Assembly (NCBI GenBank): GCA_014376765.1
Contig: JACMQX010000001.1
Location: 2,052-66,051 of the forward strand
DNA from: Ramlibacter sp.
GTDB taxonomy: Bacteria; Pseudomonadota; Gammaproteobacteria; Burkholderiales; Burkholderiaceae_C
Reading direction: 5' to 3'
Length of the DNA stretch: 64,000 nt
Below are positions 13,695 to 19,217 of the stretch, piece after piece (position 1 is the stretch's first letter; every line of letters starts with the position of its first letter). The notes beneath the pieces were generated by a model that did no database searches, was not told the origin of the DNA, and saw only the letters and a program-made list of their open reading frames with translations. The position numbers and the translations under genes are program-made.

Positions 13695-14168
13695 ATGAAC
13701 TCGTCCACATCGGGAGACAGCAGGCCCTGGCAATACGCCATCTCGCCATTTCATGCACCCATCATGGCGACGATACAAATGCAGCGGGGCTACCCGCTGT
13801 GCCACTTCTCACGTGAAAGCATTGCCCAGTTGCGCCAGCAAATCAAAAACGGGCAAGCACAGCCCGTCAACGCCGGTTACCTGACGCTGGACCCTGCCGA
13901 CCGGAGCATCTGGTATGCGGGCGGCAACAAGCGTGTGCTCAGCCCCCAGGGGTTTGACTTTGCCTACGCGATGGCGTCCCAGCCAGGCAAGCTTTTCACC
14001 CATGAACTGCTGACTGCATTGTTTGATTACGAAAGCCGGGTCACCACCAAGGCAGCGCGCGACCAACGCGTCAACCTCGCTGTGGCGCGGTTGAAGATGA
14101 AGCTGCAGGGGATGCGGGTGGCGTTGACGTCGGTGTATGCGTCGGGGCATGTGCTTGAAGTGACTTGA
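13695..14168 (+). CDS. Stand-alone OmpR/PhoB-type winged-helix DNA-binding protein (no receiver domain)
   Basis: The C-terminal ~100 aa align by eye to the PhoB effector domain: LTLDPADRSIWYAGGNKRVLSPQGFDFAYAMASQPGKLFTHELL...QRVNLAVARLKMKL...SVYASGHVLEV. No SD precedes any candidate ATG (13695, 13764, 13779), so the start is uncertain. Confidence 0.55.
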   Translation: MNSSTSGDSRPWQYAISPFHAPIMATIQMQRGYPLCHFSRESIAQLRQQIKNGQAQPVNAGYLTLDPADRSIWYAGGNKRVLSPQGFDFAYAMASQPGKLFTHELLTALFDYESRVTTKAARDQRVNLAVARLKMKLQGMRVALTSVYASGHVLEVT

Positions 14169-14234
14169 GTCGCTGAAGACTCCCACGTGGAGACCACTTC
14201 GGCTACACAAAATGCAAACCCTTAAAGAGATTCG

Positions 14235-15920
14235 ATGAACAACCTGACCATCGCGCGCGCGTACGGTCCCGACTTGTTTGCGACCTCGAATCGCGCAGGC
14301 GCATCAAAGGATGTTCAAGCGGGGGACCCCACGTACGCGAGCGACCTGAAGCATTTGGCTGTGACGATTATTTCGGCTGCCCAATCGAAAGGCGCTGGGC
14401 CAATCGATCCTTGCGCAGCTGACGCAATTTCCATCCTGATCAACTTTGCAACGCGTACGGACGACGTGGGCAAACGTGCACAAACAGTTCTGATTGATCT
14501 CCACGCGCGCAAAGATTGCGCCTCGGTCACACCTGATCTTCAGCAAGCAGCTCGCGACATGTGCCAGATCGTCAAAGATGTTCCGAAACCCTATGACGCA
14601 CCGCAGTTGTCGGAAGTTGTAGCCCTCTTCGGCAAAAAGATTGCAGGAGACGGTGACTTGGGAATTTTTTTGGATCACCATATCGCGCGCCTGAACGATT
14701 ATCCCAACGCTGCCGAACAGCCAGATCAGCTCAACAATCAAATCTTCGGCGAACCGGTTTCTTCACTCGACAACAAGCATGATGTCCCGGCGCCCCAAGT
14801 GTCGGAAATAGGTTTTCAAGTCGTCACAACCATACGATTGCCTTACGAGCACATCCAGCTGTTGGGCGATCCCGTGCGCCTGGACAGCCAGTCCGCTGGC
14901 ACGCAGATAGAGGCACAGAAAACCAGAGCAGGTAATCTTGCACTCGACTCCCAAAGGCCAGCTGCCTTTTTATTGTGCAATTGCAGTGAGCCGGGTCAGG
15001 AAAAATGGCATGCATTGATTGCCGAACCTATGGACGGCGGCGGCGTCCACTGGCACTTCCTCACACCGCATGCCGAGGACGCGGCTCAAAACGATGCAGA
15101 CGGAACTCGCACCCAATTTATGGGCCATGGCGATTCACTCCTGAGCGTGAAATCAATCTTGAAGGCAATTAACGACAATCCAACTGATCGCCGCGGCGTT
15201 GGTGTCGTCATCGCAGAACACCTCGCCTCCAAGGACGTACTTCCCGTCACAGTGCACGTGGAAAGGCCCGTGGCGCTGCCAGTCGCACCCGTGTCTGCTG
15301 CGCAAGCGGCCACGGCCCTCGTAAACTTGAAACAGTTCGGACGAACACTCGGCCTTGAGGTCTCTCCCGTCCCTGGAAAACTGGCGTTCCGTTCGATGTT
15401 TGACAAAATACAGGTGGCCAGGGAACAAGGGGCGAGGGGAGCCACCCTCGCGCTCAATCGGGAAGCAAAAAATCTGCATAGCGTCATCAGAGGTTTCGAG
15501 ATGCAACGCGTTTCAACACGCCGGTTGCATGCAGAACAAATGGGCGACGTGTCGCTCGCTGAAGCCATCTTGGACGGTCCCGATCAATTTTTGAAAGACT
15601 GCCATAGATTGGCCATGGAGATGCACAAGTACGCGTCACCAAGTCAAACACTGATAAGCATGCAAAACCTGCGTACTGCAGCTATTAACTTCCTTGCCAG
15701 CCGGGCAAATTTAGTTGAAAAGGTAGGCGCGGAAATCAAGCTTCTCGAAGATAGAGAGAGCAAAGATTCGCTGATGAAGCTCAACGTCGAAGGCCTCAAT
15801 GGCCATCTTTACACCGCCGTTGTGTCGCTTGCCGAACAGGTTGCTGCTGACCCGCAAACTGCCGCGGCGTATTTTCAGGCGCTTCCCGGCCTCAGTGGAG
15901 CCGCTTGGCTCAAACAATAA
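14235..15920 (+). CDS. Hypothetical protein, paralog 1 of a duplicated pair (no recognisable domain)
   Basis: 561-aa ORF with AAAGAGA upstream of the ATG. It is collinear and homologous with the 16143..18044 product along its whole length. Its composition is lower in GC than the flanks. Confidence 0.75.
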   Translation: MNNLTIARAYGPDLFATSNRAGASKDVQAGDPTYASDLKHLAVTIISAAQSKGAGPIDPCAADAISILINFATRTDDVGKRAQTVLIDLHARKDCASVTPDLQQAARDMCQIVKDVPKPYDAPQLSEVVALFGKKIAGDGDLGIFLDHHIARLNDYPNAAEQPDQLNNQIFGEPVSSLDNKHDVPAPQVSEIGFQVVTTIRLPYEHIQLLGDPVRLDSQSAGTQIEAQKTRAGNLALDSQRPAAFLLCNCSEPGQEKWHALIAEPMDGGGVHWHFLTPHAEDAAQNDADGTRTQFMGHGDSLLSVKSILKAINDNPTDRRGVGVVIAEHLASKDVLPVTVHVERPVALPVAPVSAAQAATALVNLKQFGRTLGLEVSPVPGKLAFRSMFDKIQVAREQGARGATLALNREAKNLHSVIRGFEMQRVSTRRLHAEQMGDVSLAEAILDGPDQFLKDCHRLAMEMHKYASPSQTLISMQNLRTAAINFLASRANLVEKVGAEIKLLEDRESKDSLMKLNVEGLNGHLYTAVVSLAEQVAADPQTAAAYFQALPGLSGAAWLKQ

Positions 15921-18044: not shown

Positions 18045-18053
18045 GCCGCTCGG

Positions 18054-19217
18054 CTATTTCGCCCCCAACCCCATCGCCCGCGTGATCACTTCTTTCATGA
18101 TCTCGTTGGTCCCGCCGTATATGCGTTGCACCCTTGCATCGGCATAGGCCCGGGTGATGGGGTACTCCCACATGAAGCCGTAGCCGCCGTGCAGTTGCAG
18201 GCACTCGTCCATCACCTTGCATTGCAGATCGGTTGTCCAGTACTTGGCCATGCTGGCCGTCGCGGTGTCCAGCTTGTTGTCTAGAACCAGCTCGGTGCAC
18301 TTGTCGACAAACACCCGCGCCACCTGCACTTCCGTTTGCGCCTCGGCCAGGGTGTAGCGCGTGTTCTGGTAGGCCGCCACGGCTTGACCGAATACCTTGC
18401 GCTCCTTTACGTAGGCCACTGTCCAGTCGATGGCGGCCTGCGCAGCAGCCACGGCTGTGATGCTGATCTGCAAACGCTCCCAGGGCAGTTGCTCCATCAA
18501 GCAAATGAAGCCGCGGTTTTCCTGCGGGGGGCCGCCCAGCAGGTTGGCTGCCGGCACACTCACGTTGTCAAAAAACAGCTCTGAAGTGTCCTGCGCCTTC
18601 AGGCCCAGCTTCTTGAGTCGCTTGCCGGTTTCAAAGCCTTTCATGCCGCGCTCCACCAACAGCAGGCTGGTGCCTTTGGCTCCGGCCGCCGGGTTGGTTT
18701 TAGCAACAACAATCACCAGGTCCGCATGCCAGCCGTTGGTGATAAAGGTCTTGCTGCCGTTCAGCAGGTAACTGCCGTCCGCCTGCTTGATGGCCGTGCT
18801 CTTGACGCCTTGCAGATCACTGCCCGCAGCCGGCTCGCTCATGGCAATGGCGCCCACCATCTCGCCGCTGGCCAGGAGCGGCAGGTACTTTTTCTTTTGC
18901 TCGTCGGTGCCGTAGTGCAGCAGGTAAGGCGCCACGATCTCGCTGTGCAGGCCGTAGCCAATGCCGGTGAATCCACCCCGCGCCAGCTCCTCCATCTGAA
19001 TCACGCTGTACAGCTTGTCTGCCCCCGCCCCGCCGTATTCCTCCGGCATGGTCATGCACAGAAAGCCGTTCTGGCCGGCCTTGCGCCACACCTCACGGTC
19101 CACATAGCCCTGATCTTCCCAGTCGGCATGGTGCGGCGCAATTTCTTTGTCCATGAAGCGGCGAAAGGCGTCGCGAAAGGCTTCGTGGTCGGGGGTGAAC
19201 AGGGTGCGTTCGATCAT
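18054..19217 (-). CDS. Acyl-CoA dehydrogenase
   Basis: Only the C-terminal 387 aa of ORF 18054..19898 look real, starting [21 protein letters not shown] at 19217. ACAD motifs present: [32 protein letters not shown]. The upstream extension overlaps the thiolase gene. Confidence 0.9.

Follow-up and report, generated by a model that had tools for sequence, protein, structure and literature searches.

Structure of the locus

The DNA stretch analysed here (the window; 64,000 nt) is part of contig JACMQX010000001.1 (positions 2,052 to 66,051, forward strand) of assembly GCA_014376765.1, assigned to Ramlibacter sp. Between a small winged-helix regulator gene and the gene of an acyl-CoA dehydrogenase (ACAD), the window carries two tandem paralogs, which encode proteins of 561 and 633 amino acids (aa) belonging to a rare family. 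A unit of ~1.9–2.1 kb, reaching from the 3' end of the regulator gene to the 3' end of the ACAD gene, was duplicated head to tail at this very place, and the present pair of genes is probably the product of this recent duplication combined with an exchange of C-terminal modules. The features of the locus are listed below in window coordinates; P numbers denote family members from other genomes, relics are decayed gene fragments, and ORF stands for open reading frame.

13695–14168, plus strand: winged-helix regulator of the OmpR/PhoB type, stand-alone, 157 aa, without a receiver domain; its last 73 nt (14096–14168) are the left end of the duplicated unit
14096–15232, plus strand: recently shared block, copy 1 (regulator 3' end, leader, codons 1–333), from BLASTN to 16006–17143
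14169–14234, plus strand: leader of copy 1, 72% identical, with indels, to 16079–16142
14235–15920, plus strand: paralog 1, 561 aa, with a predicted SseL/ElaD-like N domain, a degenerate CE-type middle domain and a P0008-type helical C module (ORF; PF22103, E 0.0037; family alignment; structure model and fold matches)
15233–15920, plus strand: C-terminal module of paralog 1 (P0008 type), without DNA similarity to copy 2; best protein match the C-half of P0008
15943–15990, minus strand: decayed relic of the ACAD 3' end, right end of unit copy 1, 87% identical to 18054–18101; indels break the frame and remove the stop
15988–16005, no strand: duplication junction, about 18 nt assignable to neither source; aligned globally, they match the continuation of neither source gene clearly above chance
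16006–16078, plus strand: decayed relic of the last 24 codons and the stop of the regulator, left end of unit copy 2; 60/73 positions identical, ungapped
16079–16142, plus strand: leader of copy 2, from the alignment to the leader of copy 1
16143–18044, plus strand: paralog 2, 633 aa, front as in paralog 1, with a P0003/P0004-type C module (ORF; the ATG at 16143 aligns with the start of copy 1)
17144–18044, plus strand: C-terminal module of paralog 2 (P0003/P0004 type); best matches the second C module of P0004 and the C-half of P0003
18054–19217, minus strand: intact ACAD, 387 aa, syntenic with thiolase and FadB; its 3' end (18054–18101) is the source of the relic

The spacer between the two paralogs is 222 nt long, and 9 nt lie between the stop codon of paralog 2 and that of the convergent ACAD gene.

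Duplication junction

The pairwise BLASTN comparison suggested in the first-pass annotation of this DNA gave two blocks. The longer one (14096–15232 versus 16006–17143; 76.2% identity over 1149 columns) comprises the last 73 nt of the regulator gene, the leader and the first ~333 codons of the paralogs. The shorter one is the ungapped core of the ACAD relic (15950–15987 versus 18062–18099; 89.5% identity, E = 1e-9); similarity between the copies resumes right after the stop codons. Over its full length (15943–15990 versus 18054–18101), the ACAD relic is identical to its source in 40 of 46 ungapped columns (87%), with two small indels between them. The regulator relic (16006–16078 versus 14096–14168) shares 60 of 73 positions (82%) without gaps, with the TGA stop codon in register, and the start ATGAACAACCTGACC is identical at 14235 and 16143.

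The first-pass annotation had placed these relics, by eye, at 15943–15990 and at 16009–16078 with the leader that follows, and had named shuffled sequences as the control. Both relics hold. Against 500 shuffles each, the ACAD relic reached a local alignment score of 56 (shuffles: 14.3 ± 2.3, maximum 26) and the regulator relic with the leader a score of 93 (16.0 ± 2.4, maximum 32). The two lie back to back in 15943–16078, the ACAD relic directly before the regulator relic. Since relics of both flanking genes adjoin in the order unit end to unit start, this is a head-to-tail duplication junction, and the in-place origin of the pair proposed earlier is confirmed. The offset between the copies is 1910 nt at the left end and about 2112 nt at the right end, in agreement with the unit size of 1.9–2.1 kb given in that annotation. 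The join itself falls within 15988–16005 and is devoid of convincing microhomology.

The regulator relic with its leader is nearer to the window's own gene (score 90) than to those in the related loci L001–L087 (at most 56). For the ACAD relic, a short and poorly discriminating piece, the corresponding scores are 56 and at most 52. In the regulator relic, 9 of 23 residues are changed and, in our reading of the alignment, 8 of the 13 differences fall on second codon positions; the matching segment is almost invariant among relatives. The relic is therefore a decaying fragment that is not under selection, and its derivation from an imported, working foreign allele was judged unlikely on the same grounds.

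One further ORF touches the junction. It encodes 88 aa (15711–15977, minus strand); from its start within the ACAD relic (MINRAMGLWESN...) it reaches, on the strand opposite to paralog 1, into the 3' end of that gene. This ORF is almost certainly a by-product of the relic and no gene.

Mosaic structure of the paralogs

Beyond the shared block, the two genes have no DNA similarity that BLASTN could detect (15233–15949 versus 17144–18061). The first-pass annotation had ascribed this to strong divergence of the copies after duplication, especially in the C-terminal halves, an explanation that the silent sites do not bear out. Among four-fold degenerate sites of identical residues, 27 of 115 (23.5%) differ in codons 1–333, and the share rises to 29 of 38 (76%, as expected at random) beyond that point (Fisher p = 1e-8). 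Selection at the protein level cannot saturate the silent sites of one half of a gene, so that the tails must be much older than the duplication. A simple tandem duplication would be expected to show comparable neutral divergence along the whole unit; its non-uniformity here (23.5% versus 76%) implies that a second event, the replacement of a module, was superimposed.

The calculation of dN/dS (the ratio of nonsynonymous to synonymous divergence) along the paralogs, another check proposed earlier, gave a split result. For codons 1–332 the Nei–Gojobori estimates are dS = 0.41 and dN = 0.23 (dN/dS about 0.54). In sliding windows the proportion of synonymous differences (pS) is 0.15–0.5 up to about codon 333 and then jumps to 0.7–0.96, which speaks against plain divergence. 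A gradient of synonymous divergence from 5' to 3' within the N-terminal half was also considered and was dropped as not significant at four-fold sites.

Relatives of the two proteins were collected by an exhaustive HMMER search of 1.84 billion representative sequences, which yielded eight distant relatives; the whole family amounts to 10 clusters at 50% identity. Word-indexed protein searches, with paralog 1 or with the 8-sequence family alignment, returned only the two window proteins, so that the exhaustive search was needed. The front halves of the paralogs are mutual best matches (387–414 bits versus at most 99 bits for others). The C-half of paralog 1 is closest to P0008 (114 bits, 33% identity over 227 aa), with the C-half of paralog 2 in fifth place (44 bits). 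The C-half of paralog 2, in turn, is closest to the second C module of P0004 (124 bits, 38% over 230 aa), followed by the C-half of P0003 (104 bits), and that of paralog 1 comes seventh (44 bits). Fronts that pair with each other and tails that pair with other genomes have incongruent histories, which makes the pair a mosaic. As seen from these comparisons, the tails are old module types of separate ancestry. The breakpoint, at about codon 333, falls on the domain boundary that is also the site of exchange in other family members, where a Pro/Ala-rich and poorly modelled linker begins.

Family genes in related genomes

Two of the relatives, P0003 and P0008, are encoded by neighbouring genes in a metagenome-assembled genome (MAG) from soil (L081/L088). 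The flanks of this locus share 80–90% DNA identity with the window, up to the stop codon of the regulator and again from the stop codon of the ACAD gene on. The leader of copy 1 is not conserved there; similarity ends at 14168. The gene order is regulator, 666-aa protein (P0003), 641-aa protein (P0008), QSregVF_b, DUF2130 and ACAD. A second group of loci (L086, L089–L097) has the order regulator, 638-aa protein (607 aa in L094–L096), 235-aa protein made up of a C module only, 665-aa protein, several small genes, QSregVF_b, DUF2130, 239-aa ORF and ACAD.

Family genes thus occupy the slot between regulator and ACAD in both related lineages, which means that the slot was occupied before the lineages split. 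This agrees with the earlier view that the gene resided here before the duplication, the relatives with 80–90% identical flanks carrying family genes at the same position. The suggested survey of single-copy and two-copy states was fruitful in part: relatives have two or three family genes in the slot, and none with a single copy was found. The tandem family genes of the relatives' arrays share no DNA similarity with one another, and the intergenic regions of these arrays are free of regulator and ACAD relics.

Between the window and L081, 37.6% of four-fold sites (445/1184) differ in six flanking genes. As the fronts of the window paralogs differ at only 23.5% of such sites and the relatives lack relics, the duplication is specific to the lineage of the window and younger than the split. 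The divergence of the relics (13–18%) fits one decaying partner of the same age as the duplication.

A scan of genome contigs for ACAD gave 80 Comamonadaceae loci. Their ACAD proteins are 81–89% identical to that of the window in 79 of the 80 loci and 80% identical in the remaining one (L075). The ACAD–thiolase–FadB synteny is complete in 60 of 80, and none has the regulator, family genes or AhpCF downstream of ACAD. The arrangement of regulator, family genes and ACAD is accordingly confined to a small clade.

A conserved front combined with an exchanged tail is a recurring pattern in these related Comamonadaceae. In the second family gene of L081, the first 1.08 kb match the 665-aa gene of L086 with 84% DNA identity (74% in protein up to residue ~400), and what follows is unrelated. 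The tails of P0003 and P0004 are 67% identical, and P0003 and P0005 have only the first 160 residues in common. P0004 (L084) and P0009 contain two C modules in series within one ORF. The 235-aa ORF consisting of a C module alone begins 12 nt after the first family gene (L086, 5439–6146; L089, 12441–13148).

The GC content at third codon positions (GC3) of the two window paralogs is 0.55–0.58 versus 0.77–0.83 in neighbouring genes, and it is likewise low (0.54–0.67) in the family genes of relatives.

Several other differences in gene content were seen at these loci. The QSregVF_b and DUF2130 genes found between the family genes and ACAD in both related lineages (L081, 12132–13830; L089, 17471–19199) are absent from the window. 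The DUF2130 gene of the relatives contains an internal direct repeat of ~115–165 nt with 70–76% identity. The 239-aa ORF beside ACAD in L089 (19317–20036) has 39% GC (GC3 0.34) versus about 58–68% GC in its neighbours at the locus, and by this composition appears to have entered the same hot spot recently, as foreign DNA. In L081, a Peptidase_M19 (dipeptidase) gene (14984–16066) separates ACAD from thiolase; the window (19218–19317) is without it.

Origin of the gene pair

We consider it probable, with good confidence, that the pair arose by a recent in-situ duplication combined with the exchange of a C-terminal module. The slot between the small winged-helix regulator and the fatty-acid oxidation genes would be a long-standing, fast-changing home of a rare modular protein family. 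In it, as the adjoining relics show, one family gene was doubled in place by illegitimate recombination, together with its leader and the adjacent 3' ends of the regulator and ACAD genes. The C-terminal half of one copy would then have been replaced by an anciently diverged C module of the same family, or swapped in the same event, over a stretch that begins at about codon 334 and ends no more than about 10 nt from the stop codon. We infer that the replacement took place by recombination with another family member, most simply on foreign DNA. The likeliest route would be homologous recombination with DNA of another strain, for which the conserved front and ACAD (or its relic) would have served as anchors. 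Three observations weigh against this history. Neither a pre-duplication relative with a single copy nor a donor of either tail was found among the relatives, so that neither the sequence of steps nor which copy received the new tail is fixed. The order of tail types in the relatives (P0003 type first, P0008 type second) is the reverse of that in the window, so that a more complex history is possible, in which a two-gene unit was duplicated and deletions followed. The tail types are also loose, their nearest relatives being only 33–38% identical.

The relics that prove the duplication would also suit a plain tandem duplication after which the copies diverged in the ordinary way, perhaps under positive selection, and more rapidly in the C-halves, as the first-pass annotation had it, and the last ~117 residues of the two tails can still be aligned (31% identity, E 8e-10). 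This account is nevertheless highly improbable in view of the saturation of four-fold sites in the C-half only, the abrupt change at about codon 333, the fact that each tail has its nearest match in another genome and not in its sister copy, and the return of similarity right after the stop codons. Signs of targeted hypermutation (a reverse transcriptase, a template repeat) were not noticed near the locus, although no dedicated search for them was run. Alternatively, an old tandem pair like those of the relatives could have been altered by gene conversion or segmental copying, in which the 5' half of gene 2 was overwritten by a tract running from the regulator 3' end through the leader and the N-half of gene 1, and no whole unit was duplicated. 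The two or three tandem family genes already present in relatives, and the fact that the shared block forms one continuous tract, are in keeping with this. It leaves unexplained, however, the ACAD 3' fragment immediately upstream of the regulator fragment, which, being only 11–13% diverged, does not stem from an ancient duplication; the tail-type order is also opposite to that of the relatives. We regard this course of events as unlikely. Very unlikely is the duplication of a two-gene unit (P0003 type plus P0008 type) to four genes, followed by two deletions, of which the first would have given copy 1 a hybrid gene (gene 1 front, gene 2 tail) and the second would have taken gene 2 out of copy 2. 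This would use only modules present at the locus in relatives and would account for the P0008-type tail beside the ACAD relic. It takes three events, though, including an in-frame fusion of fronts that have no DNA similarity in relatives, as well as a clean removal that left only the few nucleotides between the stop codons of paralog 2 and ACAD, and remnants of the deleted genes are not visible. Finally, the source being a MAG, two strain alleles of one gene might have been joined in tandem by the assembler. The chance of this is negligible: assemblers join on identical words, whereas the junction consists of decayed fragments 82–87% identical to their sources. Moreover, a separately assembled contig from public reads (L098; Logan, SRR9661224) corresponds to window positions 14126–18114, with 5 mismatches in 3989 nt (99.875% identity). 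It spans both genes, whose ORFs are intact in it as in the window, together with the junction, and this same arrangement rules against an assembly artefact.

Protein family and predicted functions

The N-terminal parts of the two proteins match PF22103 (ElaD/SseL N-terminal) with E values of 0.0037 and 0.0018 (17.8 and 18.8 bits), below the cut-off of 27. Model NF008812 gave 18.5 and 17.6 bits for the window proteins versus a cut-off of 250. PF22103 matches occur in 6 of 9 family members (best E 2.5e-5). In a comparison of the family profile with PDB, SseL (5haf) ranked first with a weak E value of 0.17. In SseL itself, the N domain is VHS-like, binds ubiquitin and serves to localise the enzyme (PMC4961225).

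One family member, P0010, also matches the model of the catalytic domain, PF22102 (E 8.9e-7), and contains LQINAPNGCG, aligned to NLQNNVPNGCG of SseL. The residues at the active-site positions of the family alignment are AHW, VVDS and LQINAPNGCG in P0010, against KWH/EWH, FLTP and a shortened GHGDSLL/GHGGDLLL without Cys in the window proteins. In the latter, the His, Asp and Cys are replaced by K/E, T and D/S-or-L, and the Cys loop is shortened. As all three active-site residues are missing, the window proteins are not filed as deubiquitinases; they may instead be non-catalytic offshoots of that architecture, serving as binding or scaffold proteins and extended by a helical, exchangeable tail.

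A first structure model, built from a 2-sequence alignment, was unusable (pLDDT 40). The AlphaFold model from the 8-sequence alignment has a pLDDT of 63.8 overall and of 70–88 within three domains, including residues 202–333. The nine best Foldseek matches in PDB are to XopD and OtDUB, followed by AvrA and HopZ1a; all of these belong to the CE clan, and all matches are weak (E 0.03–0.6, TM-score 0.23–0.39). The model and the profile matches, weak but concordant, suggest that an SseL/ElaD-like helical N domain is followed by a middle domain like those of CE-clan proteases and by a helical C module that can be exchanged. The tails found no match in Pfam, NCBIfam or PADLOC, and the PADLOC defence models gave no matches.

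By these same weak but concordant signs, the family appears to be a rare, uncharacterised and distant kin of the SseL/ElaD effector deubiquitinases. The window proteins would probably be exported, effector-like factors under diversifying pressure and controlled by the adjacent regulator. Some findings count against this functional picture. The SseL/ElaD link consists of sub-threshold sequence matches (E about 1e-3), a model of medium pLDDT (64) and fold matches with a Foldseek E value of 0.03 and TM-scores of 0.33–0.39, and no secretion-system gene was seen among about 20 ORFs scanned outside the locus in the 64-kb window.

Upstream regulator and neighbouring genes

Residues 44–138 of the 157-aa regulator align to the C-terminal, DNA-binding parts of MtrA (E 2.9e-6) and RstA in NCBIfam, below the curated cut-offs. 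The match to Pfam Trans_reg_C (PF00486) is also below its cut-off (E 0.043; 14.3 bits versus 26.2). Searches of Pfam and NCBIfam gave no Response_reg match, and model matches are limited to the output domain. Members of the regulator's clusters, of which only 3 exist among 5.8 billion, are named 'DNA-binding response OmpR family regulator' by JGI. The regulator is 85% identical to its counterparts in L081 and L086. Two scans of metagenome contigs with the regulator, one with the single sequence and one with an alignment, gave no matches. Scans for promoters and terminators were uninformative.

The genes upstream of the regulator encode a small membrane protein, AhpC and AhpF, and those beyond ACAD encode thiolase and FadB. 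The remainder of the window consists of ordinary chromosomal sequence with genes such as purA, hflK, der, hisS and ispG. The membrane protein (138 aa; 13187–13603, minus strand) is divergent from the regulator and has weak MauE/DoxX-like matches. A counterpart of 139–141 aa stands beside the regulator in all relatives, and the protein may be part of the same functional unit as the regulator locus. At 8517–10616 (minus strand) lies the gene of a 699-aa FtsH-like AAA+/M41 protease paralog, which scored 177.7 bits versus the FtsH equivalog cut-off of 600; this gene adjoins AhpF in relatives L081 and L089 too. Just upstream of the AhpCF block, a 1402-aa ORF (4118–8326, minus strand) combines DUF11 repeats with an isopeptide-forming fimbrial domain and, at the N-terminus, has a weak AgmC-like match. 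From its domains it looks like a large surface or adhesin-type protein.

The taxonomic labels of the source disagree. The GenBank MAG is named 'Bdellovibrionales bacterium', and MBC7434440.1 and MBC7434441.1 are listed in NCBI nr as 'Ramlibacter sp.'. The flanking genes match Comamonadaceae at 81–94% protein identity. The GenBank record is probably mis-binned or mislabelled.

Comparison with known systems

The locus resembles other tandem segmental duplications that arise by illegitimate recombination in its two direct copies of ~2 kb, the novel junction of right end to left end and the intact outer flanking genes. It departs from them in the 3' 0.7–0.9 kb of the unit, which is unrelated in DNA between the copies. 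Terminal reassortment of type III effectors, reportedly described by Stavrinides, Ma and Guttman in 2006, offers a second likeness: a common N-terminal part, differing C-terminal parts, a role of recombination and recurrence within an effector-like family. The window family differs in that a type III secretion system or a secretion signal would be hypothetical for it, and its hosts are free-living soil Comamonadaceae. Its exchanged tails, moreover, are homologous variants of one helical module and not unrelated domains.

In domain architecture, the proteins recall SseL, ElaD and ShiCE, a subfamily of the CE-clan bacterial deubiquitinases (Pruneda et al. 2016, PMC4961225). Common to both, as predicted, would be a helical N domain resembling the VHS-like domain of SseL and a CE-type domain that follows it, and P0010, a distant member of the family, keeps the Cys loop. 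Unlike these enzymes, the window proteins lack the His, Asp and Cys, possess an additional linker and helical C module of ~230–300 aa, score far below the curated cut-offs and occur in non-pathogens. Polymorphic toxin loci (CdiA-CT, Rhs) share with the family the conserved front and variable tail, and the ORFs made up of only a C module downstream in L086/L089 recall orphan cassettes. No immunity-like small gene follows the window tails, however (only relics after the first, and 9 nt to ACAD after the second), and no toxin domain and no markers of Rhs, contact-dependent inhibition (CDI) or secretion were recognised. The event is of a known kind, tandem duplication plus reassortment of gene termini, in a rare family that appears to be a variant of the SseL/ElaD architecture.

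Implications

The junction relics provide an unusually clean and datable example of how a tandem duplication arises in bacteria. The locus also illustrates that strong divergence in one half of a paralog pair may reflect a module swap and not fast evolution, in which case a naive dN/dS analysis misleads. It is conceivable, if rather doubtful, that in this small Comamonadaceae clade the slot is a cassette-exchange locus. Its proteins would be exported, with a catalytically inactive SseL-like scaffold that might bind ubiquitin or ubiquitin-like proteins. Their diversity would come from gene duplication and from swaps of C modules among tandem genes, orphan C-only ORFs and incoming DNA, which would let them follow the changes of a target, eukaryotic or microbial, in the soil. 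The family would connect Comamonadaceae that live free in soil with the effector deubiquitinases SseL and ElaD of enteric pathogens. In most of its members the active site has been lost and an exchangeable tail gained; if exported, these proteins would represent a new class of pseudo-enzyme effectors that evolve by terminal reassortment.

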